From positions 1-64,000 of the IMG/VR virus record IMGVR_UViG_3300020474_000007: DNA of 64,000 nucleotides, one strand, 5' to 3'. Below are positions 5,024 to 50,115 of the stretch, piece by piece. This DNA comes from a virus. The notes beneath the pieces are model-generated. The model worked only from the letters and a program-made list of their open reading frames with translations, was not told where the DNA came from and searched no databases. Made by a program: the position numbers and the translations under genes. How positions within the stretch are numbered: the stretch's first letter is position 1; the number at the start of each line of letters is the position of its first letter.

Positions 5024-8000
5024 ATGTCTAATCATCCAAAGTTATTTGATAGAATCAAACAAATTAGTGATTCTACTGGTACTGGCTCATTAACCTTAAA
5101 TAGTGCGTCTGTGGGTTTTGGCACTTTTGCTAGTGCCTATGCAGATGGCGAAAAACTTTTCTACGCAATCACTGATGGGTCTAACTACGAGATTGGCTCA
5201 GGTATTTTTCATAGTGGCGTTAGTGCTATGTCTGCTACTCTAGAAAGAGGGGCAATAGTAAGTACTAATAATAATAGTAATGTTAATTTTCTATCTGGCA
5301 AAAAAGAAGTTTATGTAACTTATCCAGCTACACATTCAGTTTTTATGGGTTCTGGTCTTGCTGGTCACGAATTGCCAAAAGAAAGTGGCTTGGCTTTTTG
5401 GAAATCTTCTCATATTCTCAGCTATGATTCTAATATTATATGGAACGATGCTTTAAATACACTTGGTATTAGAACCAATAATCCCACACACGCTTTAGAT
5501 GTTGGAGGCAATGGCGGTCAACAGTCTATGATTCGTGCTTCTGGTTATGTGGTTGGTCCTACTGGAATACATTTCCCAGCAAACAACGGTGGAGACTCCA
5601 GCTATGTTGGTGGAATACAGTATAAACATTTTCTACCCAACAAGCTTGGTGATTCAAATATTAAATCCATCTTCAACATAAGTGGCGTTGTAGATGAAAT
5701 ATTAGGATTAAAAGATCAAAATAAAGGCACTTTTTTCTCTGGTCCACCTAGTGGCTGTACTGGCAGTTGCTCTCCTGCTTTGCCAAGCTTTAGACACATC
5801 ACTATGGAAGATCTTCCGCAATCTGTAATCGATTCTAGCGTTGGCGTGGATTCTCTTAAAAATACATTAAAAGTAAGTGTTCAGGATGGAAAATACAGTG
5901 TTAGTGGAGTAGGTCTAAGTGGTCAGTTAAATCCAGACATACAACTACAAAAAGGTCTCACCTATTACTTCGATGTTAATGCTATTGGGCATCCCTTTTG
6001 GATTAAAACTTCTGGTTCTATCGGAACTGAAGCTGCTTATAATAATGGCGTTTTATCAAACAATAACGGGCTGACTAATGGAACTTTAAAATTTGAAGTC
6101 CCCCATGACTCTCCTCCTATTTTGCATTATAATTGTCAGTATCATTCTGGAATGTCTGGAATTATATATACAACTTCTATAGACTCTCAGCTTCATCATC
6201 ACACCAGTGATGCTTCATTCCCACCAAAGCTAGAGAATAAACGTTTAGGTTCAGTATATTATACAGATGATAATATTTATGCTTATACAAGTGAAGGTTG
6301 GAAGTTTGCTGAATTAAATGTTATGGAATCTCAAACGCCAGCTCCACCCTCCGAACTAAGTCAAGGTGGAAGTTCTGTAGCCGATATTGCTCAATCTGTC
6401 TTTTTAGACAGCGCTGGCGCTAGCGTTAGATATAAGCCTTCTTTAATTAAAACTTTGTCCGCTTCTGGAACAGTTCTTGAGATAGATGTTTCTGGAATAT
6501 CTAACCCCTCCGGCATTACTATACAAGCTCAAAAAGCAGACACTAGTGGTAATTTTACAATCCCAGCAAGCTCTATTGGGACCATACCGAGTGGCTCTTC
6601 TTTAACAAAGTTCTCTACTACTCTTCCGCTTATAGCTGGAGTATTCGCAAGTGGTGATACTGTAAGATATAGAGCTGTACCTACACACCAAATAGCGCTA
6701 TCGTCAACAAATCATGCTTTTACAGTTCCTGCTAATAACAACCCAGATTTTTCAATCGGTATTTATCACGGAGGAAATCAAGCCTTCTCTGGGGTATACA
6801 CAGCTGACAATCTTGGCTTTGCTTATGGTTCTAATTTAAAAGACAACAGGTTGGTGGTAGAATATGAAGGCAACCTGCCTATGCTTAGTCCTGTTGACCG
6901 ACGTAATTTTCATAGCTTTCAAAGACTTGATGCTTCAACGAACATGAATGATGTTCATCAACTTGAATGCTCACAGAATGGTACTTTGTTTGCAATAAAT
7001 GCAGAAGGTGAGATGTATGCTTGGGGTAATAATCGCTACGGTCAATGCGCTAACGGAGCCACTAGCCAAGAATTTCAATCTTTCCCTAGACAAATAGTTA
7101 CTGTCTCAGACAACTCTGGAAATCCATATCGTTGGAAGAAAGTTCAGGCTGGCGATGATTATATCATAGCATTAACAACTGGTGGATTAGTTTTTCATTG
7201 GGGTAAATTGCCTGACGATACTAATAGCTTTTCTACCAGAACAGTTTTAACGCGACCAACACTATTGTCTAGTACGCAATTTGATCAGATTTCATTATTC
7301 AACAAAACGGCGGCGGCTGTGGATACTAATGGAAGTCTGTTTTTATGGGGACATACTCATCCCGCTTTTTGGCCCACACACCGAGTAGGTAATTTCTTCC
7401 GTGGTTTCCTAAATACTCAGTCAACAATGACACCGACGAATATACCTACAACGTTAACTAATGGTGGAAATGTTACCGTTGCTGATGTAAAGATTGGTAT
7501 GGATCATATATTAGTTAGAGATGGCAACAATTTGTATGGATGGGGATCTAACAGCGAGCTACAATTGCAAACGAGCCAAAATCTTGATGATGCAAATGAG
7601 ACAATCGATTTGCAAGAAATTGCTACAGATTGCGCTACTGGTCCCAACAGTTTCGTTGCTGGGGATTCAGCCACTATATATGCATCTACCGGAGGGGGTA
7701 TGTATGGTAGAGGAAAATATTTAGATTCTACACAAGATGCTACTGATTCTATGCAAAAAATTTATACTGTAAATGGTACTGTAGATCAGATATTCGCAAG
7801 TAAAGTAAGTGACAGTCAGTTTAACACCTTTGTTGCACTGCAAGGCAGACAGTGCTATGTTTGGGGTCATAATTGTGGATTCATGTCGTACAACAAAGAT
7901 TCAGTTAGGGGCAAAAAAGAAATACAAAATGCTCTGGATGGAGAAACTGAATCAGAATATTATCTATACGACTTAAGAATTTCTAACCCAATGTACGTGG

Positions 8001-8299
8001 GTGAGTTTTTGACAAATTTTGACAGCACGTATAAAGATAACGCAGTAGCCATGAATAGGTACAATTTTATGTTAGCTGCTAGAAAAATTCAATATTCGGT
8101 TTACCAAAATGGAAGTCGCGCAAACGAGTTGGAGAAAAATATGCGATCTCCACAAATTTATGCCAAAGATACCAATCTGATTACTGGTGACAACACATTC
8201 TCAAATCCTGCTTTCCTTAATTGGGGTCTGCTATTTTGTGCTACATCTGGCACTAATACGAGCAGCAGCATGGATTGGGGTAGGTTTAGACATATTTAA
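5024..8299 (+). CDS. Tail fibre/structural protein with cupredoxin-like domain and RCC1-like repeats
   Basis: N-terminal 'DRIKQ...TGTGSLTL' phage tail motif; GHPF...YNCQYHSGM type-1 copper-like ligand set; C-terminal RCC1-like repeats (GEMYAWGNNRYGQ, LYGWGSNSELQL). Confidence 0.7.
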   Translation: MSNHPKLFDRIKQISDSTGTGSLTLNSASVGFGTFASAYADGEKLFYAITDGSNYEIGSGIFHSGVSAMSATLERGAIVSTNNNSNVNFLSGKKEVYVTYPATHSVFMGSGLAGHELPKESGLAFWKSSHILSYDSNIIWNDALNTLGIRTNNPTHALDVGGNGGQQSMIRASGYVVGPTGIHFPANNGGDSSYVGGIQYKHFLPNKLGDSNIKSIFNISGVVDEILGLKDQNKGTFFSGPPSGCTGSCSPALPSFRHITMEDLPQSVIDSSVGVDSLKNTLKVSVQDGKYSVSGVGLSGQLNPDIQLQKGLTYYFDVNAIGHPFWIKTSGSIGTEAAYNNGVLSNNNGLTNGTLKFEVPHDSPPILHYNCQYHSGMSGIIYTTSIDSQLHHHTSDASFPPKLENKRLGSVYYTDDNIYAYTSEGWKFAELNVMESQTPAPPSELSQGGSSVADIAQSVFLDSAGASVRYKPSLIKTLSASGTVLEIDVSGISNPSGITIQAQKADTSGNFTIPASSIGTIPSGSSLTKFSTTLPLIAGVFASGDTVRYRAVPTHQIALSSTNHAFTVPANNNPDFSIGIYHGGNQAFSGVYTADNLGFAYGSNLKDNRLVVEYEGNLPMLSPVDRRNFHSFQRLDASTNMNDVHQLECSQNGTLFAINAEGEMYAWGNNRYGQCANGATSQEFQSFPRQIVTVSDNSGNPYRWKKVQAGDDYIIALTTGGLVFHWGKLPDDTNSFSTRTVLTRPTLLSSTQFDQISLFNKTAAAVDTNGSLFLWGHTHPAFWPTHRVGNFFRGFLNTQSTMTPTNIPTTLTNGGNVTVADVKIGMDHILVRDGNNLYGWGSNSELQLQTSQNLDDANETIDLQEIATDCATGPNSFVAGDSATIYASTGGGMYGRGKYLDSTQDATDSMQKIYTVNGTVDQIFASKVSDSQFNTFVALQGRQCYVWGHNCGFMSYNKDSVRGKKEIQNALDGETESEYYLYDLRISNPMYVGEFLTNFDSTYKDNAVAMNRYNFMLAARKIQYSVYQNGSRANELEKNMRSPQIYAKDTNLITGDNTFSNPAFLNWGLLFCATSGTNTSSSMDWGRFRHI

Positions 8300-8312
8300 T
8301 ATAGGAGAAAAG

Positions 8313-10646
8313 ATGCAAGACTACATACTTACAGTCAGAGATTATGAAGCAAAAAATAGAACATTGAGTTCTATTGAAAATTTTGCTGTAACTGATATTC
8401 TCAATATTGAGTCTACTCTTTCCTTTAGGTTTAAATGCAATGTAGAAACTCATAAATTAATACAAGATCAAATGAAAGAAGATATTGTTTGGTTAGAAAA
8501 ATTTAATAGACCTACATTATGTCTTTCTGCTTTTAAACAAGATGCAGGAGCTTTACAGTCACAGGTGGCACAAATTGAAAATTTACCTGATGGATCGAAT
8601 GTGGATATTGTTATTCTGGATGCTGGAGACGTTTTAAAAGATTTTGAAATATTTTCTGACAGAACACGCCCATGCGATCATTGCAGTGATGCATATGAAT
8701 CTAGAGTGAAATATACAGATTGGAATATACGTACAGATGTTCCAGACATATTTACATCATCTTATGGGCATCAAGTCTATTTTGATTTAGATTCATCGCA
8801 TGATCACCCTACTATGGTGGCTTGCATTGCGGCGGGTAACGACATGGGCTGGTCTAAAAAGTCGAGTATATATAGTTTAGATATAAACCAAACTTTGTAC
8901 AATGGATTGTATCTTGCCCCACAAATGATAAGGAATTGGCATCTAAGTAAGCCAGTAAATTCCTCTACTGGTTATCGCAATCCAACGGTAGTGATTATGT
9001 CCTTTTCTCTTGGACAAGCTAAGCCTGTCTTTGTTGGCACTGGTATGAATGCTAGTGGAATAGCTGCGTACGGTTTGCTTAATAAAGTTGGTGTCTCTGG
9101 AGTTTCTTATCGAGGAGTAGTATATCCTTTAGATAGTAGTGTTTCTGATATTCCTACTTACCTTCATTCTAAAAAAATAAATTTTACTTTATCGACAGAC
9201 AGAAATGGTACAAGTCCATTAAATAGAATTAATACGCAGGATACTTTTGGCGATATCACGCAGGCTCAAAAAACTCTTTTCAGAACTATGGCTGATACTG
9301 CTAATATCTTTTGTGTTTCATCAGCCGGTAATAATAGAGCTACAGTAGTAAATTCTGGTCATGCTGATTTTAGCAACAAGATTATTAGTTGGGACGGCAC
9401 TGAAGCATACTACAACCGCGCTAGAACCCCACAAGATATATCTAAAGTTTTTTCAATTGGGTCTATTGGCTCTGACAAAGAAAGAACCGTTGCTGAACAC
9501 TCAAATATCGGTCCAAATGTAGATCTGTACGCTCCCGGTGAAGACATAATTGTGTTTAAGGGAAAAAATCAATCTGGGGATGACTATACATCTAGCGACA
9601 CAATGGGGAAATCATTCGGAACTAGCTTTGCAACGCCACAGGTGGGCGGCATGATCGCTTGCTATCTTTCTAATAACAATCATAATGCTTCTTACGCTGC
9701 GGTTAGTGGTTGGTTGATGAGTCATGCTCAGCCTATGTTAAAACCATCTTATGATACCATCCCAGCAGAAAAACAAAACGATTCTATAAAGACTGATAGT
9801 TCGTCTTTTAACAGAGCTGCACATTACCCCGGATTAAAAGTAAGCTTGCCATCAAAAAATCCAGTTCTTCACAATCCTAGCCACTCCGATGTAATAGTTA
9901 ATCGCGGTGAGACTCAAGAGATAATTGCTGTTCCTGCTACTTACAGTTTCACCTCGCCGGATCAATCTTACATGATTGATGCTACTCAATCAGCATTAGT
10001 TGTGGCTTCTAGTGGAAGATTCTTCATGGGTTCAGCTAACTCAGATGTTGTAAGAAACGGTATGTTTACATCATATCCAAGTGGTCTTGGTTTAGGAAAA
10101 AGACATTACCTAATTTTTGATAAAGATAACAATCCCGATGTAGTTTATCAAGTAATGCAAGCTAGCCTAGAGGTAGATACTAAATTTTTAGGAGCTGGAT
10201 CTCCACACCCTTCTTCTGTCATGGGGATGTATTTTAAATATACAGACGATAACAATTTCTTAGCTTCACAAGTAACCACAAGCGGTATATTCTACAAGAC
10301 TAGGCTGTACGCATGTTCTGGTGGAGTCGAGTCAACATTGCATTCGACTCCGTATAGAAGCTATGCCCCTGCTACTCATAGAGGGGCTTTTGTTCAATCT
10401 ATGTATCACATAAATACAGGTACTAGTGAATATTATAGACACATTATTAACCGTTCTAATAAACTTGGTCAAACAAACAGTGTTTCGCCTCTCGTTGATT
10501 CTGCTTGGATCACTGTCTCTGCCGCAAACTCTCCACCCAATGGTAAGCCCGGACTATTTGTAGAGAGTCATGATCAAAATCAGCCTAATCCTTTAATTAG
10601 TTCATTTTCAAACGTGTTGTTGAATGATGACACTCAAAAACTATAA
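8313..10646 (+). CDS. Subtilisin-like (S8) serine peptidase, probably virion-associated
   Basis: Catalytic motifs in order: IVILDAG (Asp), HPTMVACIAAG (His), SAGN (oxyanion Asn), GTSFATPQV (Ser). Start moved to ATG 8313, which has an AGGAG SD, from the track's 8187. Confidence 0.85.
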   Translation: MQDYILTVRDYEAKNRTLSSIENFAVTDILNIESTLSFRFKCNVETHKLIQDQMKEDIVWLEKFNRPTLCLSAFKQDAGALQSQVAQIENLPDGSNVDIVILDAGDVLKDFEIFSDRTRPCDHCSDAYESRVKYTDWNIRTDVPDIFTSSYGHQVYFDLDSSHDHPTMVACIAAGNDMGWSKKSSIYSLDINQTLYNGLYLAPQMIRNWHLSKPVNSSTGYRNPTVVIMSFSLGQAKPVFVGTGMNASGIAAYGLLNKVGVSGVSYRGVVYPLDSSVSDIPTYLHSKKINFTLSTDRNGTSPLNRINTQDTFGDITQAQKTLFRTMADTANIFCVSSAGNNRATVVNSGHADFSNKIISWDGTEAYYNRARTPQDISKVFSIGSIGSDKERTVAEHSNIGPNVDLYAPGEDIIVFKGKNQSGDDYTSSDTMGKSFGTSFATPQVGGMIACYLSNNNHNASYAAVSGWLMSHAQPMLKPSYDTIPAEKQNDSIKTDSSSFNRAAHYPGLKVSLPSKNPVLHNPSHSDVIVNRGETQEIIAVPATYSFTSPDQSYMIDATQSALVVASSGRFFMGSANSDVVRNGMFTSYPSGLGLGKRHYLIFDKDNNPDVVYQVMQASLEVDTKFLGAGSPHPSSVMGMYFKYTDDNNFLASQVTTSGIFYKTRLYACSGGVESTLHSTPYRSYAPATHRGAFVQSMYHINTGTSEYYRHIINRSNKLGQTNSVSPLVDSAWITVSAANSPPNGKPGLFVESHDQNQPNPLISSFSNVLLNDDTQKL

Positions 10647-15701: not shown

Positions 15702-16100
15702 ATGGGTGATCTATCAGAGTTTGTAAATAATCGCGGTCAATACAAAAAAGCTAGAGAAGAAAAGTATAAATTGGACTCTAGAGACCGTCTTTCTAAAATA
15801 CTAAAAAAGAAAATTCAAACCACAATGATTGGTGCTTTGAGTAGTATAGAGCAACATCTCGGATTTTTGTGGACAAATCAGAATGGAGAATTGACAGAAG
15901 ATCAAAAGAAGTTATTAGAATTATACAACATGGTTCGTTCTGAGATATTAGACAGGGGAAACAATCAAGCTAGAAACATTGATGCAGAGCTGTCTCAATA
16001 TGAAGTAGAATGGTTAAGATACACTATGATCATGCCAGTAGTAACAAAAATTGAAACTAAAACAGAGGAGGATCAAAATGATTCAGGACAAGGAAACTAA
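15702..16100 (+). CDS. Hypothetical protein
   Basis: 132-aa helical ORF with AGGAG SD. Confidence 0.6.
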   Translation: MGDLSEFVNNRGQYKKAREEKYKLDSRDRLSKILKKKIQTTMIGALSSIEQHLGFLWTNQNGELTEDQKKLLELYNMVRSEILDRGNNQARNIDAELSQYEVEWLRYTMIMPVVTKIETKTEEDQNDSGQGN

Positions 16101-16935
16101 AGTAGACGTAAAAGTTGGTGACGAAACAGTTAAGATCGTCGTAAGAAAACCCACTGCGCCATTGATGTCAAAAGCTCAGGGCATAGCTGCTAAGGCTTGG
16201 TCTGTACACGCCAGAGAAGGAGTTATGACTAAAAAAGAACTAGAAAAGTTTATGAAAGAACATGGCATTTGGGATGAGACGAAGGATGAAGAAGAAGCAA
16301 AGAAGCAAAGAGAAATTGCAGATTATGAAAAACAATTGTACGTTAGAGGTAAAAATGGTAAACTAAAGACCTCTGAGGGGCGAGATATTGCAATTAAGAT
16401 GAGAATCGCTAGAAATGAGCTTAGAGATCTTATTGCCGAACGAATTGCTTTAGAGCAAAATACAGCTGAATCACTGGCTGATAATGAAAGATTTGACTTT
16501 TTAGTGGCAAATTGCACCTTTCGTGAAAGCGGAGAAAAGGTGTATAGTTCTTTAGAAGATTATACAAATGAGGCTGACGGAGAAGTTGCTTTTGCAGCTG
16601 CCAGCGCTTTGGCGCAATTACTGTACTCTGTAGATAAAAGCTTTGAATCTAATCTTCCAGAAAATAGATTTCTACAGATGTTTGACTTTGTAGATAAAGA
16701 TTTAACTTTAGTAGACCACGATGGAAATTTAGTGGATACTAAAAACAGAAGAATAGACGAAGAAGGATATCTCCTAAATAAAGACGGTAAACGTACAGAT
16801 TTAGAGGGCAATCTCTTAGACGATAATGGTCGTTATGTTCCTTCTGTTACATATACAGATGATAAAGGTCGTAAAATTAGCACTTCTAACGGACAGAAAA
16901 GCAAAGCTAAAGTACCAGCAGAGGATAGCGTGTAG
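16078..16935 (+). CDS. Putative tail assembly chaperone (short paralog) with C-terminal D/N-x-x-G repeats
   Basis: Immediately upstream of the tape measure; ATG 16078 with GAGGAGG SD; repeats LVDHDGN/IDEEGY/LNKDGK/TDLEGN/LDDNGR. Confidence 0.55.
   Translation: MIQDKETKVDVKVGDETVKIVVRKPTAPLMSKAQGIAAKAWSVHAREGVMTKKELEKFMKEHGIWDETKDEEEAKKQREIADYEKQLYVRGKNGKLKTSEGRDIAIKMRIARNELRDLIAERIALEQNTAESLADNERFDFLVANCTFRESGEKVYSSLEDYTNEADGEVAFAAASALAQLLYSVDKSFESNLPENRFLQMFDFVDKDLTLVDHDGNLVDTKNRRIDEEGYLLNKDGKRTDLEGNLLDDNGRYVPSVTYTDDKGRKISTSNGQKSKAKVPAEDSV
16540..16555 (+). promoter_or_regulatory. GTGTATA-N6-TAG motif (copy 3, intragenic)
   Basis: GTGTATAGTTCTTTAG, about 400 nt upstream of the tape measure ATG. 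Confidence 0.4.
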
Positions 16936-16956: not shown

Positions 16957-19900
16957 ATGGCAAAATTTGTCCTGACTGCACAATTACAATTACAAGCACC
17001 ACGTAATGTCAATCAAGTCGTTAATCAGATACAGAATCAGCTACGGGGCGTAGCTGTTGATATAGATGTACGCAATGCTGCAAAGACTCAGAGAGAAATC
17101 CAAAACTTAAGTCGGACTACCGATAAGGCTGCTGACTCTGCGAAACGGATGGGTAGCGCGTTTAATGTTTCTCTTAAGAGGTTTGCTGGATTAGCTCTTG
17201 CGACTAGGGCTGTATCTCTGTTTACTAATACCCTTGGCGGTGCTGTAAAAGAGGCTATATCTTTTGAGAGAGAGTTGATAAAGATTTCTCAGGTTACTGG
17301 AAAGTCTATATCACAATTAAGAGACCTTACTAAGACTATTACTTCATTATCTACTAGTCTAGGTTCTTCTTCATCTGCATTATTAAATGTATCTAGGTCG
17401 TTATCTCAGGCGGGTTTTAGTGCCAAAGAAACTGAGATCGCTCTTTCTACTCTTGCTAGGACAACCTTAGCTCCTACTTTTGATGACATTACTAAGACGG
17501 CTGAAGGTGCTATTGCTGTCTTTAATCAGTTTGGCAGAGGCGCAGAAGCCTTAGAGCAGCAGCTTGGTGCTATTAATGCTGTCGCTGGTAAGTTCGCTGT
17601 TGAAGCAGGCGACTTAATTTCTACTGTACGTAGAACGGGTGGTGTGTTTAAATCTGCTGGTGGTGATCTAAATGAACTTATTGCTTTGTTCACAAGTGTT
17701 AGATCAACTACGCGAGAAAGTGCGGAAAGTATTGCTACTGGTTTAAGAACTATTTTCACACGTATACAACGACCAAAAACTATTGACTTCATGAAACAGT
17801 TTGGTGTTCAACTTACAGATTTAGAGGGTAAGTTTGTAGGACCGTTTGAAGCTACAATGAGACTTAGTAAAGCCTTAGCTGGCTTGGAACAGGGTGATAT
17901 TACTTTTGTTCGTATAGCAGAAGAGTTGGGTGGGTTTAGACAAATTGGCAAAGTCATTCCTCTTATTCAACAGGCTAGAGTTGCACAAGAAGCTTTAAAT
18001 GTAGCCCAAAGGGGTGGTGACTCGTTAGCAGCAGATGCCGCTAAAGCACAACAAACATTAGCTGTACGTATCGTACAAACTCAAGAAAAATTCATTGCTT
18101 TAGTTAGAAGCATATCCGAAACTACAGCCTTCCAGTTGATGGCTAATAGTGTGCTTGCGCTGGCTGACGGTCTGGTAAAGGTTGGCGAAGCAATTAAACC
18201 CGTATTGCCATTGATAGCTGCTCTTGGCGCTTCCAGAGGTATTGCTGCTCTTGGAGGGTTTGGTGGTAAAGCTTCTAAAATGGTTGGCATGAATAAAGGA
18301 GGCTCAGTACCCGGAACTGGAAATAGAGATACTGTTCCCGCCATGCTCACGCCGGGAGAGTTCGTAATAAGAAAAGAAAGCGTCAAAAGTTTAGGTGCTG
18401 AAAATTTACATAAAATGAACAAGTATGCTTCTGGAGGTATTGTTACGGCTGATAGGCATGGTTATGGAAAGTTTGGTGCTAATTCACCAGCCATGAAAGC
18501 AGCTAAAAGAGCAACAGAGCAGTCAGATGGTGTTACTGCGTGGAGAAACAAAAGTCAAAATGAAAGACAAGCGGAGGCAGCTAGGATTGATGCCGCTGGA
18601 AGGAAGAAGGGTTCAGAAAGAGTTGATCCTAAAAAAATTAAGAGTGCTACGTTAAGTGGTGAGTTTGGTGTTTCATTTTTGAGAGGAAATGCTGGAAGTA
18701 AAGGTCTAAACGCTACGATAGGTCAAGTACTAAAAGAGTCAAATAAAACGGGGGCTGACAGACTTAAATCATCTCTGTTGAAGAGAGCTGGATCAAAATC
18801 ATTAAAAGATATAAATTATAACAATGCTAGAATTACAGCTACAGGAGCTGTTCCAACTTACTTGCAAGGAGACGGTGGTAAAATATTCAGAGATGAGATA
18901 GAAGCCGCAGTTCCGCAAATGTTTTCCAAGGCAACGGAATCTTTCACGGGAGAATTAAGACCTTCTGCCGCCTTGCCATTAAATAAATTAGTATCTAAAT
19001 CAGCTATAGGTTCTATAGAAGGTCAATTTTTTGAAGCATTCATTAGATCTGTTACTAACAACACAATTAAAGATCCTAAGAAAGATGAAATATTCGATTT
19101 CGCCGCACTAGCGGCCTCAAAGAGTGACCTTGAAAGATTATTTGGAGACAACCCTTTTGTTCTTCCTAATGAATTTAAGAATGATGCTAACAGTGCAGCT
19201 AATCGTGCTAGCGCGATTGGTAAGGCGATGTCTCTTCCCGGCACTCAATTGAGATTTTATAACAAGGGTGGTAATGTCAAAGACACAGTTCCTGCTATGC
19301 TAACTCCGGGTGAGTTTGTGGTTAACAAAGCATCTGCACAAAAGATTGGTTACAATAATCTTAAACAAATGAATAAAGTTAAGGGTTACAACGCAGGCGG
19401 TGTTGTTACTGGTAATAGACATAATTATGGAGTAGAGTCTGCTGGCAATCCCTTAACTGATCTTCTATATGGTAAAGGTAAAACTGACGCAGGCGGTGAC
19501 AAGAAACTTGCTGACGGTGCTGCAAAAGCTTCTAAGGGGATGGCTAAGTTGGCTGGCGCTGCCTTCGCCACAACAGCTGCTCTTTCTGCTATTATACCAG
19601 CCGCTAAAGAAAATGAGAATGTTTATATCACTGGCGCTCGTTCTTTAAATCAATCTCTAATGACAATCATAGGTGGTGCTAGTACCGCTGGTTTTGCTCT
19701 ACAGTCTTTTGGTAAAGACATAGACGTTGGCGCATTACTTAAGAATAAATTTGTTGGTCCCTTAGCTGCTGCTGGTACTGCTGCGTTTATAGTCTCTAAG
19801 ACATTCCATTCTTTGGAAAATTCATCAGCAAGATTAAAGAAATCTATTGAAGATGGAAACAAAGCTCAAGCAGTTGCGCTCTCTACTCAGGCCAGTACTT

Positions 19901-22900
19901 CTGGTGCTAGATCTGGCGTTTCTATGGGCGTTGGATTGGCTGCTGGCGCTGGCGTAGGACTTCTAACTGCTACCGCTGGTCTTCCAGTTGCTTTGACTGC
20001 CGCAGCTCTTGCTGCTGGAGCGTTTGCTCTGGGTACAGAACTCAGTCTTTCTAGCATGACAGATGGATTCCAAGATTTCCTTTCTATGTTTGGCGCTTCT
20101 ACTTCTGCGCAAATCAAGGCGCAAACAGCCCTGACTATTTCTAGTAATGATTTTGAAACAGCGTTGAAGAAATTAGGCACAGCTGCCAATACTGCTGCGG
20201 AAGCCATGAAACAAGGCAATGCTAACCTTGCAGGCAGTTTGGACATCCTAGCGGATACAATCCAAAAAGAAAGACAAGCTCTTATAACAGATACCAATAA
20301 TAAATTTAAAGTAGATCAAGATGAAAATGTAGGTAGCCTCCGTGGAAAAGTCTTAACTAATATGAGTAGCAATCTTGCTACCCAGCAAAAGCTTCGTAGT
20401 GGAGACCTTAAATCACAAAACATAACAAGAATGCCAGTAATGGGAGCAGATGTTTTTGAGGTTAATACAAAGGGTCTTATTAAAGAAATCACCGTTCTTT
20501 CTCAAACAATTGAACAGTTGAGGACTACGGGGGGAAGTCAGGAAGAAATAAATAAAAATGTTAGAAGAAGAGATTTGCTAGGCTCTGTAAATGTTCAGGG
20601 TGACTCTTTTTTCAGAAACTCAAAAACTGCTTCAGGCGTTCTTGGTAAGAATGAATCAATTTCACAAGAAGCAACAAAAGCTAGACAAGAAGCAAACAAA
20701 CGAATATTTGATCAATCTGCTCCAGTTCTCAATATAGAACGTAGACGTTTCTTAAGACAGCAGGCTGGCAATCAAGGCAGCACTGAGAATGTTAGTTTTG
20801 AAGATTTCCGCAAGAGTCTTAGCACAGCTGGTGAAAGCGGTAAACTTTTTGCAGAAATTTTGGGAGATCTTTCTGAAGCAGACTTAAAGGAAACAAGGCA
20901 GGCATTTGATAATGTTGCAAAAGAAGTTGATCGTGCCAGAAAAGCTTTCTTGGCTATCAACGTTGATCTGAGGTCTGTCACTTCATCTGCCACTGCTACT
21001 ACGGCTGGATTGAATTCTCTCATAACTGGGTTTACCACTGGTGCATCTCAACTTCAATCTGATTTTGCCACCATAACAGCTGCTATGGGTTCAGCTGGTG
21101 AAAATATGAGACCAGAAGATGTAGAAAAAGCTTTAGGTGGAGTCACACGTAAGCTTGCAGAGTTTGGAGCAGATGATGCAACTGTTAATAAAGTTAGCAC
21201 AAATGTAAAAGCTTTTGCAAAAGTTCAACAACAATTCCCAGCTTTAGTTAAAGACGTAAAATCGCAACTTTCAGATGTATCAGGAAATCTTACTACTGGA
21301 AATCCACAAGATGTTAAAGACGCATTTAAAAAGGCTATTGAAAACAGTTTAGATGATAGTGTTGGAGAAGAAGCTCGTAAAAGAATTATCAATGCTTTTG
21401 ATGCTGTTGAATTAAAACCAGACCAACAAGGTCGTTTATCACAACAACAATTTGATGTGTTCGGAGAAATAATACAAGGAATAAGCCAAGACCAATTGAA
21501 ACAATTTGAGTCTTCTGTAGCTGCTGTTGTTGAAGCAGAAAATAAGATGTTGGTGATACTTAATAAAAAGATTGCTACAGAAAATGATCTGATAAAAGCT
21601 CAGCAGTCAGCTATAGACATTTTCAAGGAAGCTAGACAAATAGAAGCTGAGTTTGGTGGTAAAAGATTTACGCCAGCAGACAGAAAAGCATCACTCTCTT
21701 CTCGGGCTAATGTTTTAGGCAGAGGCGCTGGGCTAACTGATATTGATTCTAATTTATCTGTGGATTCTCTTAGGCAAAGAAACGCAGAGATTAAAAACAG
21801 ATTCCAAGGTAATCGCTCTGCTTTAGATGCTGGTGGAGCTGATGCTTCTACTAAGGCTGACATTCAAGAATCACAGAATAGACTTAAAGCAGCTCAGAAA
21901 GAACAAATTCAAACTATTAGAGAGTTGGTTTCAATTCAAAGAGACGAATTGAAAATTATACAAGAAAAAAATCGTTTGGAAAAAGATTCCATTGACTCTC
22001 TCCTTGGTGGTAATATAGAGAAGTTCTTTGATCAGCAAGCAGCTCAGGGTGCTATATCGGCAGCTTCTGGTGGTGATCAAAGGTTGATGGATGCTTTTGG
22101 TCCTCAAGCGATGAACGATGCTAGAGTTGAACTAGCAAGAATGAGAGATGCTGGTGTTCAAGATGTTAATGGCGTTAATCTGGATGGTAGAGGAGGATTG
22201 CTAGAAACTGTTAGTATTGATGCAGCAAGGCAAAGAGGTCTTGGTTCCGCAGCATTGCAAGCTGGTAGGCTGGCGGCTGGAACAGACGACAAGAGTTTGG
22301 CAGCTAAACAAAATTTAAGAAATAGCGCTGGTCTTCTCGCAGAGACGGGAGATCTTGGAGCTGATATGGCTCAAATGGAAGTTGACTCTGTGAATGAAAT
22401 GATGGTCAAAGCTCAGACAGTAGTTCTTGAAGCCAAAACTATTGGCGATACTAATCAAAGAATAAGAGATAATAGAGATGCAGACAGAGTGGTTCCTGTT
22501 GAGATAAAGAAAGAAAACGTTGGCAACACTCAGATTTCTAGAAAAGCAGCTGGTGATATGCACATGTTAAGGCGAGGAGGCGTTGTTTATGCCAACCAAG
22601 GAATGTTTGTTCCTAGAGGAACTGATACGGTTCCTGCAATGCTTACACCCGGAGAGTTTGTAGTAAGAAGAGAAGCTGTTCAAAGAGGTAATAATCTTGC
22701 TATATTAAAATCTATGAATAGTGTGCCACAACAAGCGGCTCCAGCTCCAGCTGCTGGTTATGCTAACGGTGGTGTCGTCTACAGGAGTCAAGGCTCTAAT
22801 GGTCCAGAGGGCGGGATGGGAATTAGCATGGAAGCTATCAATAAACTATCTGAATCATTTAGAACATTCAATGAAGCTTTTGGTAAGAATATTAAACAAC

Positions 22901-23094
22901 TCGCTGACACCAAATTTAGTGTCTCACTTGATAATAATAATATAAATGTAAATCTAAATGGTGGCTCATTCTTGCAGTCGCTATCAGAGTCGCTCAAGAA
23001 GTCGTTGCTACAAGAAGTTGGCAACCAATTGGCTGGATTCAAACCGTCATCAACCGGACTAAAGGAAGGCAGATCAGTTCTGCCGGTCGCGTAA
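16957..23094 (+). CDS. Tail tape measure protein (TP901-like core)
   Basis: 2045 aa, Ala/Gly/Leu-rich and helical; TP901-type core ('AISFEREL..I.QVTG', 'ESIATGLRTIFTRI'); three DTVPAMLTPGEFV motifs. Confidence 0.9.
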   Translation: MAKFVLTAQLQLQAPRNVNQVVNQIQNQLRGVAVDIDVRNAAKTQREIQNLSRTTDKAADSAKRMGSAFNVSLKRFAGLALATRAVSLFTNTLGGAVKEAISFERELIKISQVTGKSISQLRDLTKTITSLSTSLGSSSSALLNVSRSLSQAGFSAKETEIALSTLARTTLAPTFDDITKTAEGAIAVFNQFGRGAEALEQQLGAINAVAGKFAVEAGDLISTVRRTGGVFKSAGGDLNELIALFTSVRSTTRESAESIATGLRTIFTRIQRPKTIDFMKQFGVQLTDLEGKFVGPFEATMRLSKALAGLEQGDITFVRIAEELGGFRQIGKVIPLIQQARVAQEALNVAQRGGDSLAADAAKAQQTLAVRIVQTQEKFIALVRSISETTAFQLMANSVLALADGLVKVGEAIKPVLPLIAALGASRGIAALGGFGGKASKMVGMNKGGSVPGTGNRDTVPAMLTPGEFVIRKESVKSLGAENLHKMNKYASGGIVTADRHGYGKFGANSPAMKAAKRATEQSDGVTAWRNKSQNERQAEAARIDAAGRKKGSERVDPKKIKSATLSGEFGVSFLRGNAGSKGLNATIGQVLKESNKTGADRLKSSLLKRAGSKSLKDINYNNARITATGAVPTYLQGDGGKIFRDEIEAAVPQMFSKATESFTGELRPSAALPLNKLVSKSAIGSIEGQFFEAFIRSVTNNTIKDPKKDEIFDFAALAASKSDLERLFGDNPFVLPNEFKNDANSAANRASAIGKAMSLPGTQLRFYNKGGNVKDTVPAMLTPGEFVVNKASAQKIGYNNLKQMNKVKGYNAGGVVTGNRHNYGVESAGNPLTDLLYGKGKTDAGGDKKLADGAAKASKGMAKLAGAAFATTAALSAIIPAAKENENVYITGARSLNQSLMTIIGGASTAGFALQSFGKDIDVGALLKNKFVGPLAAAGTAAFIVSKTFHSLENSSARLKKSIEDGNKAQAVALSTQASTSGARSGVSMGVGLAAGAGVGLLTATAGLPVALTAAALAAGAFALGTELSLSSMTDGFQDFLSMFGASTSAQIKAQTALTISSNDFETALKKLGTAANTAAEAMKQGNANLAGSLDILADTIQKERQALITDTNNKFKVDQDENVGSLRGKVLTNMSSNLATQQKLRSGDLKSQNITRMPVMGADVFEVNTKGLIKEITVLSQTIEQLRTTGGSQEEINKNVRRRDLLGSVNVQGDSFFRNSKTASGVLGKNESISQEATKARQEANKRIFDQSAPVLNIERRRFLRQQAGNQGSTENVSFEDFRKSLSTAGESGKLFAEILGDLSEADLKETRQAFDNVAKEVDRARKAFLAINVDLRSVTSSATATTAGLNSLITGFTTGASQLQSDFATITAAMGSAGENMRPEDVEKALGGVTRKLAEFGADDATVNKVSTNVKAFAKVQQQFPALVKDVKSQLSDVSGNLTTGNPQDVKDAFKKAIENSLDDSVGEEARKRIINAFDAVELKPDQQGRLSQQQFDVFGEIIQGISQDQLKQFESSVAAVVEAENKMLVILNKKIATENDLIKAQQSAIDIFKEARQIEAEFGGKRFTPADRKASLSSRANVLGRGAGLTDIDSNLSVDSLRQRNAEIKNRFQGNRSALDAGGADASTKADIQESQNRLKAAQKEQIQTIRELVSIQRDELKIIQEKNRLEKDSIDSLLGGNIEKFFDQQAAQGAISAASGGDQRLMDAFGPQAMNDARVELARMRDAGVQDVNGVNLDGRGGLLETVSIDAARQRGLGSAALQAGRLAAGTDDKSLAAKQNLRNSAGLLAETGDLGADMAQMEVDSVNEMMVKAQTVVLEAKTIGDTNQRIRDNRDADRVVPVEIKKENVGNTQISRKAAGDMHMLRRGGVVYANQGMFVPRGTDTVPAMLTPGEFVVRREAVQRGNNLAILKSMNSVPQQAAPAPAAGYANGGVVYRSQGSNGPEGGMGISMEAINKLSESFRTFNEAFGKNIKQLADTKFSVSLDNNNINVNLNGGSFLQSLSESLKKSLLQEVGNQLAGFKPSSTGLKEGRSVLPVA

Positions 23095-23108: not shown

Positions 23109-26100
23109 ATGGCTACATTTAATATAACAGTATTAAGTACTAGTAGTACCTCTAATGGTTATCGCTTCTCTGGAGTTGATAGAAACGGGGCTATAAGTGG
23201 TACTAATAATGAAACCATAAATGTAAATGCCAATGATGCTATTAATTTTACTTTCTACAATAGCAGTTCTCATCCCTTCTCTTTGGCTGGTACAAGTATT
23301 TCTGGAAAGTCTGCTACTGGTGGATACTATAGCTATCCATCTTATGCTTCGCATACTTTTACGACGGGTGGCACTTATATCTACGATTGTGATGTTCATG
23401 GGTCTTCCATGCAGGGAAACATAGTAGTAGCTGCTGGGACTACGACTACAACTACAACAACAACTAGCACCACGACAACAACCACCACCACGGCAGCGCC
23501 AACTACTACTACTACTACTACTACAACTACCACAGCAGCACCAACCACTACCACCACGACGACGACAGCAGCACCAACCACTACCACCACTACGACGGCA
23601 GCACCAACCACTACCACTACAACCGCTGCCCCAACGACCACAAGCACAACCACGACCGCTGCGCCAACCACGACCGCTGCGCCAACCACGACCGCTGCGC
23701 CAACCACCACAGCAGCGCCTTTCGATGACGGTACTTACAATATTACAAGTACTTTTCCTGATATGAATATGCTTCCGAGTCCATCGGTTCCGGCATCGGC
23801 TACATACGCAACAACTACGACGACAGCAGCTCCATCCGATCAATGCACACTATGTACTAAAGAGCATACTTTAGAATTGTCTGGTGACAGCGCATTAAAA
23901 GCTTCTGTTTTTGGAATGAGAACTCTGCGTTTAAAGATAAAAGGAACGAGTGCCATAAAAATAAATCCACAAGTAAGTGTTATTCGTAACACTCCCGTGG
24001 TGTTAAAATCTAATGGCAAAATAAGAGCTTCCGCTAATTCTATAATGAATCCTAGAAAGTTCATCAAAGTAAACAATGGTAACATTAAAGCCAATTTAGA
24101 ATTTGCAGGCCCGCTGTCTGTGCGCACTAAGATTAAATTAGGAAGTATTTTCTCTAATACTCATGTTGATAAAGTGGTGGGACACTTCGCAACTCTTGGC
24201 AGCTTCTTACCTCAACAAAAGTTGTACCCGTCTGGTGACATTTCTTCTTCTTCTATGATTAACCAAGATGGAAGCACTGCTAACCTATACCAAAGTATTG
24301 ATGAAGGTGTGGCGATTGGTCAGTACATTAAACCTGACAGTCAAAGCTCTTTAGTCTCTGACGACTCTGGCACATTCATTCATCCATCTGCTATAAGATC
24401 TGATGGAAGTTTTAGTTATAAATGCGCTGTCAGTCCAGCTATTATCAATACAGACCACAGCTTCTTGTTCATGCGGGCAGCTGCTCCACTTAGAAACTAT
24501 GGCTCTGACAATGCTCCTCAATATACTTTACAAAACATTAAATTAGAAGATCCATCTGGCAACCTTATAGTCCATTATAAAGATGTGGTTGTTAGGGGCG
24601 ATGCTGACTATGACTCAGACGGGCCTTTAAGTAAAAACTATTTTACAATTATATCTGAACCTGCAATTAATTATGGTGGATTGGGAGCTTGGGAGAAAAA
24701 TTATCCCTTCTTTGGCGCTCATCATGTTCGTGGATCTAACTCTTTTAGTCTTAGCCTAGATATAACCGCTAAGTGCTTAGATGATCCTTTTAGTCAAGGC
24801 TTTGACATTGGCTACGAAGAGAATGTTTGTGACATTCCTGAACTATCTGTGATTAATGATGAAGATGATTTTCAATCTATAGCAGGCTCTCCAATATCTA
24901 CTCAGGGTCAAGACATTTTTCTAAACCCCACAGACAGCTTTAGAATATCAGCTATTGAAATATGTAATAGTGGTGGTCCAAGATCAGATCTCGCCCTTGC
25001 TCCAGCTCATGATAACTATGTTACAGCTTTTGTGCAAGCCCAAGCCAAGGGTAAGTTAATCACAAAGCATATCTTTCCTTCTCAAGTTTTGACTCATAAT
25101 TTTGATACTAGCATTTGGCCCGATGTCAACTCTACGTGGTATCACTCTGGAGAGGCCGGTGTCTTAACTAATAATAATGTTCTTGTTTCTAGTGGAAAAC
25201 TTTTGGCTGAACAAATTTCTGATAGGCAAGCTTCTACTCACATTAAATTAATTAATTCTTCTATTCAAGACTCTGGCAAATTGCTGCTTAAATTTGAGGA
25301 TACAAAACAACTATTCACCACATTTACTAGTGATAACGACGTTGCTGGCGGTGACTTTAATGCTAACTTCAATATTAGACAAAGAAAAACTTTGCCTCTT
25401 CAAGATACTTTTTATGCTGACATTGAAAGTATAAATATTAAAGTTGTAGCGAGAAAAAGAACAAATTCGTCACCAGACTACGCCCTCGACGTTGTGGGAT
25501 ACAGTGACGATAAACTTCTTTTCGTAACTGAGCCATCTGGTGGATTTTTACAGAACATAGCTGGTGGAACTATTATCAACCAAAACGTCATGTCTTCTTC
25601 AATTGTTCCTCCGCAAGAACTGGCAATTGCTAAACATGCAATATCCGATAAGGATAATTCTACTGTATATAGCAATTCTATAGCAAACAGTGGTGGAGAT
25701 CATCATGTTCTTACACAATCTCCACTCATTAACTCTATAGATTTTAAACAATATACTATACCTTTAAAAATTTACGATAAAGAGAATTTACTAGGCGCTC
25801 CAACCAAACATGACTCAAGCCCATATTTAGAGCATTTGTTCGTAGACATCTATCCCATACCTTCAGGGGCTGAAATTGCAGACATATTGCTCGAAGTAAA
25901 ATACAGCCCGCAGAATGCGTTAAATCTTCGTACCATTGGAACACATAACAGTGACGATCCATTAGTGACAACCACAGTATCTCTGTCTCCAAACGGAAAA
26001 GTTACTAATATATCTAGTGCTAAATCTCTCCCTAGTGGTGAAAATATTCCTTACGCCTATGACCTTACGGCTTACGACAATAAACATGTTTATGATAATT

Positions 26101-29100
26101 TTGCAAGACGGTGGAGGGGTGTCTCTGGCAAGGATGTTAACGAAGCTTTTGATGCATCATTTGATTTCTCGTTCGACAGAAGGGCAACCGCCCACCCATT
26201 TAATTCTGGATATTTTGACTTTACAAAGTATAGATCTGATTGTGTTTTAGATTCAGAAGGCAGATCTTTCTCAGGTGTTTTCACGGGAGTCACCACAAGC
26301 GATATCTACAAACAGTTAGGCTGGAGATTCTCTAATGATTTAATTTATACTGGACTGTTAGATCCTGACGGTAACGCCATTGACAGAAGAACAATTAATT
26401 GGTCTTGGAGTAATAGCACTTTCCCCAATCTTACAGACGCATTTGATAGTGCGGCTAGACTTAATGACTCTTCTAAATATATCAGTTTTGATTCAACTTC
26501 TAGCAATGAGTTTTCTTTCTTGGTTAGATTCAGTCCAGACTACATAAGTAGTTCTGATGTTGCTAGCAATTTAGATATGTTTCATCATGGTTTAATAGCA
26601 GCCAAATATGCTGTTAATGATATTGGTGATAAAATTGTTGAGTTCGCATTGGCTTATGAGCAAGATAAGCTGTGCGCATTTTCTAGAGATACAACTGGAA
26701 ATATAATTAGAATAGAAGACGACTTGCCTTATACAAGTTATGTATTCCCACTTACCGCTATGGTCACATATAACGCCTCCGATAATAAATTACGATTATA
26801 CGCAGATTCGGAAGCCAGCGGTACTTTTAACATTCTCAGAGCTGAGTCTTCCGCATTCACAAAAGTTAATACTGATCAAAAAGTTACCTTGGGTTACTCA
26901 GCAGGGTCTGGTCTTGGATCAGAAGTGTTCATCACCGAATTTGGAATGTCTAGTAAATGTATAGATTTAGTTGGTAGTGGATATGTAGAACAAAGAACTT
27001 CTCAGTCAGTTGGCTCTAGTGTAGATCATAAATTAACTGCTGGTGGAGTTACTGATATATTTGATTCAATAAGAAATCCTAATCACGTTTCTTCTAGAAA
27101 CAAAATGTATTCTTACATTGACGATAAAATAAACAACGTCTGGAAGTTAAACGACTTTAGGCATTGTCAGTTCAATCAAAGTTTTAATAGACTTTCCTAT
27201 CGTGGAGATAAAGACTTTGTAGAACACCATCTAGTCCATGATGGATTGCCCTACTCTTCAAGAACAAATTTGTCCCTGCCTTCTACATTACAGGCTAGTG
27301 GCTTGGCCTATCACACCCAGATAGAAAACGATTTCCTACGTTTTAATATCGGAAACGCCTCTAGTGTTCCTTCTTCTGGTAAATTTTACGCAGCTGCTCC
27401 CAGAATTACTAAATCTTTACCAAGAGGCTACCACTTTGCAGAAGAAGCAATTGCTGTAGACACTGTAATTGATTTTCATTCTGACAACACAATTGCTTGG
27501 GATGATGGCAAACTCGGTCCTAAATTAGTTGTTAGTCTTTACAGTCCATCCTTAATTCCTGACTACGATGGGGCAGACAAGTCTTTAGGTTTAGTCAATC
27601 GTCGAATTCATTACTTAGAACCAAGCGGTTGTATTAGAAAAATTACTAGTGGCTTCAATAAAAATGATCTTTTTGATTCTTCAGAATCTTGGTCTGTATT
27701 TAATACAGAATACGAACACGTTATTAAAGAGTTTGATCATCGACATTATGCAACCAATATAAATGATATGTTCTTGCAGTATGATGTCATATATCCTTCA
27801 GGTTCTTCGTTTGACTCAAAAGTTAAAATACACTCAGCTATGATCAGAATGGATCAAGCTTTAACTACTAAGCCAAAAGTCAACGATGATATGAATCTGT
27901 ATACTAGTGGTGAATTTATATCTATAGTTGATTTGTCATTGTTCGTAGATGGTAAAAAATCTTTAGACAATTTGTTTGGCGCTCCATCTGGAATGTCTCT
28001 GTATGTGAGTGGCGTTGCTGTTTTTCCTTCTTCTGGAGATATGAATCTTTATTGCAGCGGAATTCCAACTGCAATAGACGAGGTAAACTTATACACAGCT
28101 GGTCATAGATCTGTCTCTAGCGATTTGGTTCATGGGTCTGATATGTTTGGAAGTCATAACGTGGGTGTTAATATCTATGTTAGCGGTCAAACAAGGTTGC
28201 TAGAAGAGATGAGTTTGTTCTCTTATAATAATCAAACTGTTCCTGCCGCTAGCGGATCTCTAAATCTTGTATTCCCAAGCCCAACATTAGTTGCATACAA
28301 TCAAAATACTTCAGTCAACCTCTTCGTGAAATCTCCAAAGTTTGCTGAAGTATCTAGAATTTTAAACGTCTCAATGCCTCTGTATTCATATGACAGAGAC
28401 TTGTTTGATTTTAGCTCGTCAATGAATTTGGTTAATTACAATGAACCAATAATAAATTCTTCTAATGACTCTGTAAATTTATTCACAATTAATTACGCCG
28501 CTTATGATTCAAATCTTGTTGGTCAAGAGACTATATTGTGGAATGGTAGAAATGTAGGATCTACTGTTGTATCTTTAGACGAGCCTTACATTTCCGTAAG
28601 CCCAACGGATTCGCTTAGAACTCAATCAACCATATGCTATGGAGATTGTGGATATGGTGGCAATTGTAACTACGTAGACATTAATACTCATGGTGTAGAT
28701 TGGTTTAAGTCTTACTGCACTGATGGCGGTATAGCTAGAGGGTTAGATATAGACTCAAATAATCAGTATTATGGTATCAGAAAATATACTGGTTTGATTC
28801 CTCTGTATCCTTATACTATCTCCATGAGAGGTTTTTCAGGCAGCACAGAATATATAAATCTTCCAAAAGAAATAGAAACGGTTGAATATGGAAGTAATAG
28901 TGAAGTTAATTTCTCTGGCATTAAATTATTCACTAATGATCCTTATGGACTTCACGCTAAATACGGTAAGAGTATTGTTGTTAAAGGTAATAGACTTTTA
29001 ATTGGAGCGCCAGAATATGATCTCTATGAAGGATCTAAAAAATTAGATAAGTCTGGGGCTGTGTTTTTATATAAAAGGCTCGCAGCTCCTTCTGGAACTG

Positions 29101-47765: not shown

Positions 47766-47802
47766 ATAAAAAGGGGGCATTTCTGCCCCCCTCATATTTT
47801 TT
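47764..47802. terminator. Bidirectional rho-independent terminator
   Basis: Stem AGGGGGCA-TTTC-TGCCCCCT (47772-47791), flanked by an A-run on the left and a T-run on the right, between convergent gene blocks. Confidence 0.85.
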
Positions 47803-48133
47803 ATTCTGCCTGTTTAGTCTTTGGATTCCATTTAGTCCAACCGCCGTCTGGTAGCCAATTGTCACCATCCTTGCGCTTGGGGAATAGACCTCCACCCTTT
47901 TTCATTGATCCAAACGCTAGCTTGGCTCCACAGTCTAAACATCGTAGCTCGAAATATTCATTCTCATCTACAGTTCTAACAACGAATCTGAGATTTTCAG
48001 ATCCACATTTGCCACACTTTGTTTCCTCAAACACCTCTTGAAATCTTGAGATTTGAGTAAATAATTCTCTATGCGTATCCGCATCAAATTCTGCTGTAAT
48101 TCTATTGTTTGCTGTCGTATATGAAAGCTTCAT
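47801..48133 (-). CDS. Zinc-ribbon protein
   Basis: CGKC...CLDC pairs. Confidence 0.7.
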   Translation of the reverse strand: MKLSYTTANNRITAEFDADTHRELFTQISRFQEVFEETKCGKCGSENLRFVVRTVDENEYFELRCLDCGAKLAFGSMKKGGGLFPKRKDGDNWLPDGGWTKWNPKTKQAE

Positions 48134-48910
48134 TTAGTTTCTCCATTCTTCGTTATATCCTACGAACTCTGTAGGAATTGTACTTTTGTCCCGCTGATAA
48201 TCATTTAATACATCAATAATATCACTAGCTACTTTCTTAGAAATCTTGCGATTATTATCTACTTTGAACTTATTCTTGAATAACTTACCTCCATTTACAT
48301 TTAGTTGCTTACACTTAATATCAATAAAATTGTATTGAGCATCGCTCATCCGTGCGGAGTCATTATAGTCTCCACCACTACTATTATTCTGCTTTGAAAG
48401 ATCACGAACAATCTTTGCTGTGTCTTTCTTTGTCAGTTCTTCTGCCGCAACGCCCTTGATCTTTAGAACCTTTCGTAAAGCTCTGGCCTCTGCGCGAGTG
48501 CTAGCAATCGCTACGGCAAAAGCGCAGAACATGTCGTCAGTATTTCCCTCCCAAGAGTCTGCCACCTCTGAGCATCGCAGGCCACTAGCAAATTCTATAG
48601 TGAATATGACTGTTGCTCTGCCGTGGTGATCATCACGATCTGTTGGTTTAACCCAAGTTGGTCCACTAAAAGACATTGGGCCTAATACTATTTCAGAGAC
48701 TCTTCTAAGCCCAGTTACAAGTGGATGACCGTTCATCAACTCATCTTCTTGAAACAGCGTCATAGCGTAATCATGCCACTCTGGAGATAGCATAGATGGA
48801 GCATCTGACGGCGTTATATCTTTTACTGACGTATCAGTGTTTGACGGTGTACTCAATTCTTCTACTCCTTCAAATAGGTTTTCTTCTAGTTGCATTTCTT
48901 TACCTTTCAT
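48134..48910 (-). CDS. Rad52/Sak-like single-strand annealing recombinase
   Basis: 'ATV.FTI.F...EVAD...A.A.TRA..RALR..L.I' core; C-terminal 'SDAQ..FI...ISK..AS.IID.L' motif. Confidence 0.55.
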   Translation of the reverse strand: MKGKEMQLEENLFEGVEELSTPSNTDTSVKDITPSDAPSMLSPEWHDYAMTLFQEDELMNGHPLVTGLRRVSEIVLGPMSFSGPTWVKPTDRDDHHGRATVIFTIEFASGLRCSEVADSWEGNTDDMFCAFAVAIASTRAEARALRKVLKIKGVAAEELTKKDTAKIVRDLSKQNNSSGGDYNDSARMSDAQYNFIDIKCKQLNVNGGKLFKNKFKVDNNRKISKKVASDIIDVLNDYQRDKSTIPTEFVGYNEEWRN

Positions 48911-49680: not shown

Positions 49681-50114
49681 GATATTATATCTATAATCTC
49701 TTTATAATTATTAGATACTCCCAGAGGTTTTTTACCACTAATACGATATACTTCATTAGCAGTTTGATCATCGTCACATATGATTCCATTTATTTTATCG
49801 CAGTTCTTCAAAAACAATAGTATATTATCTTTAAATTTGATATCACAATACTCATATATCTTAAATTTATTTACTATTTCTATTGCTGAAGATGTATTGT
49901 CCATCCCTCTCGTGACTAAATTTCCTTCAAAAGCCCATAAATCTACAGAATTATAAGCTCCACATAAAAAAGGTTTTGGATACGGTCCAACATCATTATA
50001 AAAGATACTTGCATCTTCTAAGTTTTTAGAACTGGAATATCTAGCCACTTCTGTAAATATACAATCTAAGTCTCTACCCTGAGATAGTGAAGAAATATAA
50101 AATCCTACATTCAT
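49677..50114 (-). CDS. Hypothetical protein (possible glycosyltransferase-like fragment)
   Basis: 145-aa ORF, coupled, within the glycosylation cluster. Confidence 0.5.
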   Translation of the reverse strand: MNVGFYISSLSQGRDLDCIFTEVARYSSSKNLEDASIFYNDVGPYPKPFLCGAYNSVDLWAFEGNLVTRGMDNTSSAIEIVNKFKIYEYCDIKFKDNILLFLKNCDKINGIICDDDQTANEVYRISGKKPLGVSNNYKEIIDIIS

Positions 50115-50115
50115 T

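Follow-up and report, generated by a model that had tools for sequence, protein, structure and literature searches.

Tape measure proteins of tailed phages are usually seen as rulers of tail length and as conduits for DNA, and some of them carry a cell-wall hydrolase. To our knowledge, phage P23-45 offers the only demonstrated case of a tape measure fused to a nucleic-acid enzyme. The present analysis deals with the tape measure gene of an uncultured marine phage, found in a window of 64,000 nucleotides (nt) that corresponds to positions 1 to 64,000 of the 74.5-kb virus record IMGVR_UViG_3300020474_000007. Its product contains a folded domain set between two copies of a repeated module. Module, domain and module appear to form a conserved three-part unit, and the domain is most likely a divalent-metal-dependent nuclease or phosphodiesterase, a reading that is held with moderate confidence.

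In the Thermus phage P23-45, the tape measure gp96 is fused to a virion RNA polymerase whose activity was shown experimentally (10.1101/2022.12.01.518664). It shares with the candidate described here the presence of a nucleic-acid enzyme built into the ruler, and it was proposed to act at the tape measure pore during DNA entry. This fusion is a precedent, and the delivery of a nucleic-acid enzyme by a tape measure therefore has an example. Nevertheless, the enzyme of gp96 is a different one, it is N-terminal rather than placed between modules, and no repeated module of the type found in lambda gpH was described in this protein (10.1101/2022.12.01.518664).

Catalytic domains inside or at the end of a tape measure are also found in Gordonia phage Polly, in cyanophage S-SCSM1 (gp213) and in T5 (pb2). 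In the first two, the catalytic domain is directly beside the same module as here: the SLT domain of the Polly tape measure abuts it, and in S-SCSM1 gp213 the module, which has the exact 13-residue motif DTVPAMLTPGEFV, precedes a glucosaminidase domain. However, these enzymes belong to recognised muralytic families, whereas the domain described here matches none of them and has a nuclease-type signature.

The module is also present in the tape measure of phage lambda, gpH, which is cut to gpH* and gpHC in a Gly-rich region just upstream of it by a protease that is not known; proteolytic cleavage near the module is documented for lambda only (PMC12617516). The alignment extends over gpH 736-785, within gpHC, and reads GG..G.G...PA..V..GEFV..KE......G..NL...M..YA.GG.V. 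The third copy of the protein studied here is located about 100-150 residues ahead of the C-terminus, as is the copy of lambda. In contrast, gpH has a single module and no embedded globular domain, while the present protein has three copies, two of which bracket a folded domain.

Three copies of an ancient module

The gene encodes a TP901-type phage tail tape measure protein, as had been proposed in a preliminary description of this DNA made from its letters alone. The product matches PF10145 (E 1.7e-23, 84 bits against a cut-off of 33.2), TIGR01760 (E 1.9e-25, 89.7 bits against a cut-off of 28.8) and phrog_28 (E 1.2e-27). It is very long, with 2045 amino acids (aa), and displays membrane-type hydrophobic segments and a long body (Table 1).

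The motif DTVPAMLTPGEFV occurs three times without any change, at nt 18328-18366, 19282-19320 and 22624-22662. Each time it is part of a module, about 57 aa long, that has a GG motif at its start and ...MN...GG.V at its end, copies 1 and 2 reading NKGG...DTVPAMLTPGEFV...MN...GG.VT..RH.YG, and phrog_35029 matches three stretches of the protein. The coordinates and strings given in the preliminary description for the first two modules were all correct, and the third motif that it had placed near the C-terminus, at about 22620-22665, turned out to be an exact copy. In the 39 nt that encode the motif, any two copies have the same third base in only 4-6 of 13 codons, and the protein identity of the modules beyond the motif is 34-45%. 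Given these scrambled third codon positions and the low identity of the flanks, the copies are ancient and not recent duplicates; since the peptide is nonetheless exact, DTVPAMLTPGEFV has been kept by selection.

A complex prediction with the three module copies reached a score of 0.02, the fold of the module itself being uncertain, and it gives no indication on self-association in either direction. A likeness between D-T-V-P-x-x-L-x-x-G-E-F-V and the Ser-box of S24/S26 peptidases was considered and dropped, as the Thr is Glu in lambda and no other support was found. A literature search for the motif string returned nothing relevant, and no paper in the searched library quotes the motif.

A phmmer search of module 1 against PDB chains matched Douge gp16 in two places, 971-1003 and 1419-1454 (E 4.6e-4), lambda gpH at 736-785 (E 0.011) and JBD30 gp46 at 1018-1072 (E 0.094). 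The three phages have in common the columns GG...PA.L..GEFV...G..L...N...GG, and by this alignment the module is homologous to gpH 736-785. It is found across many tape measures of sipho- and myophages; tblastn located it in annotated tape measures of Gordonia, Mycobacterium, Streptomyces, Clavibacter, Shewanella and Stenotrophomonas phages. The motif had been described as normally a single C-terminal feature of tape measures, but this is not always the case, since Douge gp16 has two copies and the relatives described below have 2-7. The solved tails of lambda, JBD30 and Douge show no more of the tape measure than its last 30-40 residues, and the module is unresolved in every one of them.

The exact DTVPAMLTPGEFV is also present in proteins of T4-like cyanophages, namely S-SM2 gp012 at aa 348 and S-SCSM1 gp213 at aa 612. 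In these cyanomyophages, both S-SCSM1 gp213 (L004:2195-5047) and S-SM2 gp012 (L005:2999-5299) are encoded just downstream of the baseplate-hub gene gp26.

A folded domain with a conserved acid and lysine signature

The segment between copies 1 and 2 had been described as unlike tape-measure helix, and structure prediction agrees with this view. An AlphaFold2 (AF2) model of aa 505-768 (264 aa, 51-row alignment) consists of a charged helix at aa 511-546, which corresponds to residues 7-42 of the model and has a predicted local distance difference test score (pLDDT) of about 56-61, followed by a compact alpha/beta domain. As this model including the linker gave only coiled-coil matches in VIA and nothing in Foldseek, the globular part (aa 554-768, 215 aa) was refolded alone, and reached a mean pLDDT of 93.2 and a predicted template modelling score of 0.88.

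The domain was found only within tape measures. An exhaustive phmmer search against 1.8 billion representatives returned only 27 clusters, the full-length matches being tape measures in which the position of the domain is the same and the short ones looking like fragments, and among 50,697 records of cultured phages tblastn obtained no match at E up to 1. The family is basic, with a median isoelectric point (pI) of 9.8 and a median net charge of +11.

The string EGQFFE...IFDF...NEFK, already noticed in the preliminary description, is found at aa 688-741 (nt 19018-19179). It was examined in an alignment of 69 homologues that occupy slot 1, the first inter-module segment, and are 12-50% identical to the query. 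Only G689, E693 and D714 are invariant in all 69 sequences, while position 739 is always acidic (E in 58, D in 11) and K741 is kept in 68. In the numbering of the globular model, the first Glu (E140) lies in helix 128-147, the Asp (D161) is a strand residue, and E186 and K188 belong to strand 185-190; the strand that carries E739-x-K741 is followed by a helix and then by another strand. As judged from the alignment and the model, the order of these residues and their secondary-structure context are those of a PD-(D/E)XK site. The E...D...(D/E)xK order expected for a restriction-endonuclease-fold core, which had been proposed for this region, is thus borne out by its conservation in the 69 homologues; the PD-(D/E)XK fold itself is a candidate one, no significant structural or profile match to such enzymes having been found. 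Most likely, the putative active site is patterned on PD-(D/E)XK whereas the surrounding scaffold is diverged or new.

Several observations weigh against a nuclease. Foldseek searches of the globular model against PDB and BFVD gave no match at E <=0.001, and the domain found nothing in Pfam (16 homologues, E up to 10), in NCBIfam, in PHROGs (four domain sequences) or in a sequence-profile search of the PDB (E up to 10), nor any usable match in ESM Atlas look-ups. The spacing from the Asp to the ExK is long, 25 residues with a helix between, and no strand separates the Glu helix from the Asp, unlike in the canonical alpha-beta-beta-beta-alpha-beta core. The putative site was assigned from residue order and secondary structure. 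Tape measures in general are commonly basic, the whole protein having a pI of 9.6, and a nuclease placed beside the incoming phage DNA would need a way to spare it. Compared with PD-(D/E)XK nucleases of the EcoRII/PspGI/NaeI type, to which it shows no significant fold or profile match, the domain differs by the helix between Asp and ExK and by an extra N-terminal beta-rich half. Searches at the level of HMMER often miss links within the PD-(D/E)XK superfamily. The confident model that lacks a structural match suggests that the domain may be a new fold.

Slot 1 in a large family of tape measures

A search with aa 440-830 retrieved more than 3,373 protein clusters, 1,100-3,600 aa in length and nearly all matching PF10145, and the architecture of the family is described from the best 120 of these. 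Each protein has 2-7 copies of DTVPAMLTPGEFV, of which the first almost always falls within aa 440-540 and the later ones are variably spaced. Splitting these relatives at their modules yielded 313 inter-module segments. In the 96 proteins with a long ruler body, one cassette is present upstream of the body in 77, two in 14 and none in 5. Downstream of the body, the same proteins have no cassette (32), one (44), two (17) or three (3), and the 87 downstream segments fall into 65 sequence clusters; by this measure the hypervariable slots lie downstream of the helical body. The 2045-aa tape measure has no cassette downstream of its body.

Three relatives contain an ADP-ribosyltransferase domain (PF03496), which is located between modules in P0060 (aa 923-1135) and P0099 (aa 1015-1164) and upstream of the first detected module in P0119 (aa 526-680). 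Since the segments bounded by modules vary, and include ADP-ribosyltransferases, a module-bounded cassette architecture is real for the family, and the variation in module number and content that had been expected among relatives was indeed observed. An extreme multi-cassette tape measure is encoded by IMGVR_UViG_3300036770_005983 (L027:1828-6792), where five exact motif copies are found within 5 kb, with spacings of about 150-870 aa.

Slot 1 behaves differently. A profile built from the 69 sequences detected the domain in this slot in 102 of 119 relatives, among them every one with at least 40% identity; where an extra cassette stands ahead, the domain is in slot 2, and it never occupies downstream slots. 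With the domain in the same slot in so many relatives, it is therefore a core feature in this lineage and not a swappable cassette. This bears on the model put forward at first, in which the modules delimit a freely exchangeable cargo similar to polymorphic toxins, excised at the modules and set free in the host. The variable number of modules, the diversity of the downstream segments, the ADP-ribosyltransferases of P0060, P0099 and P0119, the roughly 14% of relatives with something else in slot 1 and the cut of lambda gpH just upstream of its module (PMC12617516) would all suit it. However, the content of slot 1 is conserved and collinear in all close relatives as well as in 86% of the sample, and the 2045-aa tape measure lacks a variable downstream cassette, which makes the model improbable for the domain considered here.

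A constant position would also suit a core structural part. The domain might have no catalytic activity and instead bind a chaperone, the tube lumen or the leading DNA end during assembly, the charged residues holding a metal or forming a salt-bridge network. Such a role would be consistent with the lack of any match to an enzyme family, with the basic character of domain and linker, and with structure papers in which tape measures contact the DNA end in the tail. Yet the sequences diverge down to 12% identity around one Gly, three acids and one Lys that are retained, which is the pattern of an active site rather than that of an interface, and a folded domain of 24 kDa would be awkward for a purely structural part in a narrow tube. 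A structural or assembly role is thus considered unlikely.

The relatives in which slot 1 has no match to the domain are also informative. In these 17 of 119 proteins, three of the segments exceed 1,000 aa and the other 14 were examined. Five of the 14 are compact and repeat the strict signature, for example GKAFEKIV...RLDAV...VFEIK and GRAFEQII...RLDG...VEIK. By chance this signature occurs in 0.1-0.2% of shuffled sequences, and it was found in 1 of 75 later-slot segments. Local hhalign comparisons of the domain family with the compact segments gave a probability <1%, so that no homology is detectable, and Pfam recognised no nuclease family in the relatives that carry them. In relative P0107, which has two upstream cassettes, aa 519-714 form a compact segment (FEKIV...FLDL...GEVK) and aa 774-1143 belong to the family of the studied domain (E 1.4e-20). 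It seems that slot 1 is dedicated to a domain with a nuclease signature that is occasionally replaced by another of the same kind. As read from the sequences, these unrelated domains of like signature are evidence for limited exchange at the modules, and their repetition of the signature raises the confidence in a nuclease-like function.

The same repetition bears on another possibility, in which the conserved carboxylates would serve an envelope-degrading enzyme of new fold, for instance a hydrolase of peptidoglycan or polysaccharide. Catalytic domains embedded in tape measures usually have this task, the known ones being mostly muralytic, as illustrated by the SLT domain beside the module in Polly, the glucosaminidase after the module in S-SCSM1 gp213, and T5 pb2 and the mycobacteriophage cases cited in the literature (PMC12617516 among the sources). 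Moreover, Pfam recognises no other cell-wall hydrolase in the 2045-aa protein, and the distance of 21 residues between the invariant Glu and the invariant Asp would be suitable for a glycosidase. On the contrary, the domain shows no fold or profile likeness to lysozyme, SLT, M23, NlpC/P60, amidase or glucosaminidase families in Pfam, Foldseek or VIA, although muralytic families are normally easy for Foldseek and Pfam to detect. The near-invariant Lys two residues past the second acid, in a strand, is typical of PD-(D/E)XK enzymes and not of glycosidases, and the E...D...ExK pattern is the one repeated by unrelated slot-1 domains. An envelope enzyme is accordingly quite unlikely, and the nuclease remains the preferred reading.

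Organisation of the tape measure gene and its surroundings

Table 1. Features of the tape measure gene, in window coordinates
Feature	Position (nt)	Strand	Residues (aa)	Basis or remark
Tape measure protein gene (P0001)	16957..23094	+	2045 aa in total	ORF list and translation
TP901-type tape measure core region	17224..18231	+	90-425	TIGR01760 over aa 90-425, PF10145 over aa 126-312
Hydrophobic, membrane-helix-like segment just ahead of module 1	18169..18261	+	405-435	Kyte-Doolittle
Module copy 1	18292..18468	+	446-504	DTVPAMLTPGEFV at aa 458-470
Charged Lys/Arg/Ala-rich helical linker	18469..18618	+	505-554	pI 10.3
Globular alpha/beta domain of undescribed family	18619..19260	+	555-768	AF2
Signature G689, E693 (helix), F713-D714, E739-x-K741 (strand)	19021..19179	+		69-homologue alignment and AF2
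Module copy 2	19261..19431	+	769-825	DTVPAMLTPGEFV at aa 776-788
Hydrophobic segment	19540..19605	+	862-883	Kyte-Doolittle
Gly/Ala-rich hydrophobic segments	19912..20049	+	986-1031	Kyte-Doolittle, peak hydropathy 1.86
Long ruler body	20050..22587	+	1032-1877	Homologous to the longest inter-module segment of relatives
Module copy 3	22588..22791	+	1878-1945	DTVPAMLTPGEFV at aa 1890-1902; position equivalent to the single lambda copy
C-terminal 100 aa	22792..23091	+		Expected in the tail-tip hub, by analogy

The hydrophobic segments were called with a Kyte-Doolittle window of 19 residues and a mean of >=1.4. No domain was matched in the long ruler body by the Pfam scan. The end of the protein is expected in the tail-tip hub by analogy with lambda, JBD30 and Douge, whose C-terminal tape measure helices are resolved there (structure papers).

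Directly upstream of the tape measure gene, two open reading frames (ORFs) on the plus strand, 15702-16100 and 16051-16935, overlap by 50 nt in different frames. This is the usual place of tail chaperones made with a programmed frameshift. Neither ORF has a family match in Pfam or PHROGs, and none of the same-strand neighbours of the tape measure matches a tail-chaperone or distal-tail family. On the other side, a plus-strand ORF of 4337 aa (23109-36122) starts 15 nt past the tape measure stop codon; its only Pfam match is an FG-GAP repeat at aa 2374-2399, and its product is probably a giant distal tail or fibre protein. Further upstream, the plus-strand ORF 5024-8299 encodes a protein of 1091 aa with an RCC1-like beta-propeller (PF25390, aa 638-952) and a baseplate-connector-like stretch (phrog_677), and is overlapped by a plus-strand ORF of 819 aa (8187-10646) that matches phrog_9158 and a protease PHROG. 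Near 48 kb, gene orientation and GC skew change sign, and from about 47800 to 64000 all ORFs of at least 100 aa are on the minus strand, save two that overlap minus-strand ORFs.

A possible role at the start of infection

If the domain is a nuclease or phosphodiesterase as favoured here, it would be synthesised within the ruler, wait in the tail lumen and leave together with the ruler upon infection, so that the tail probably takes a ready-made, nuclease-like enzyme into the host. The hydrophobic segments that flank the unit (aa 405-435, 862-883 and 986-1031) would then probably insert into the host membrane after ejection, as was proposed for the ejected tape measures of other phages (PMC12617516 among the sources). 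This would keep the basic domain at the membrane, close to the DNA conduit and in a position to cleave host or defence nucleic acid, or else to process DNA. As for the modules on either side, they are read as the general joint of tape measures that also occurs once in lambda gpH, and they do not mark a recent insertion. In addition, the module offers a concrete candidate determinant for the processing of lambda gpH.

A broader and more speculative view, to which only a small probability is given, is that the whole tape measure family serves as a scaffold for effector delivery. The modules would be processing or hand-over joints and each segment a separately injected protein; slot 1 would always hold a nuclease, here of unseen fold, acting on host or defence nucleic acids during DNA entry, and the hypervariable downstream slots, with their ADP-ribosyltransferases and dozens of unknown families, would constitute the arsenal of an arms race.

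Beyond this single gene, a domain with a nuclease signature is found at a fixed position in a very large family of tape measures from uncultured phages, and the motif that brackets it is under such constraint that its 13 residues are found unchanged in T4-like cyanophages. Should the domain prove active, the injection of nucleases would be a common, overlooked opening step when marine siphophages infect their hosts.
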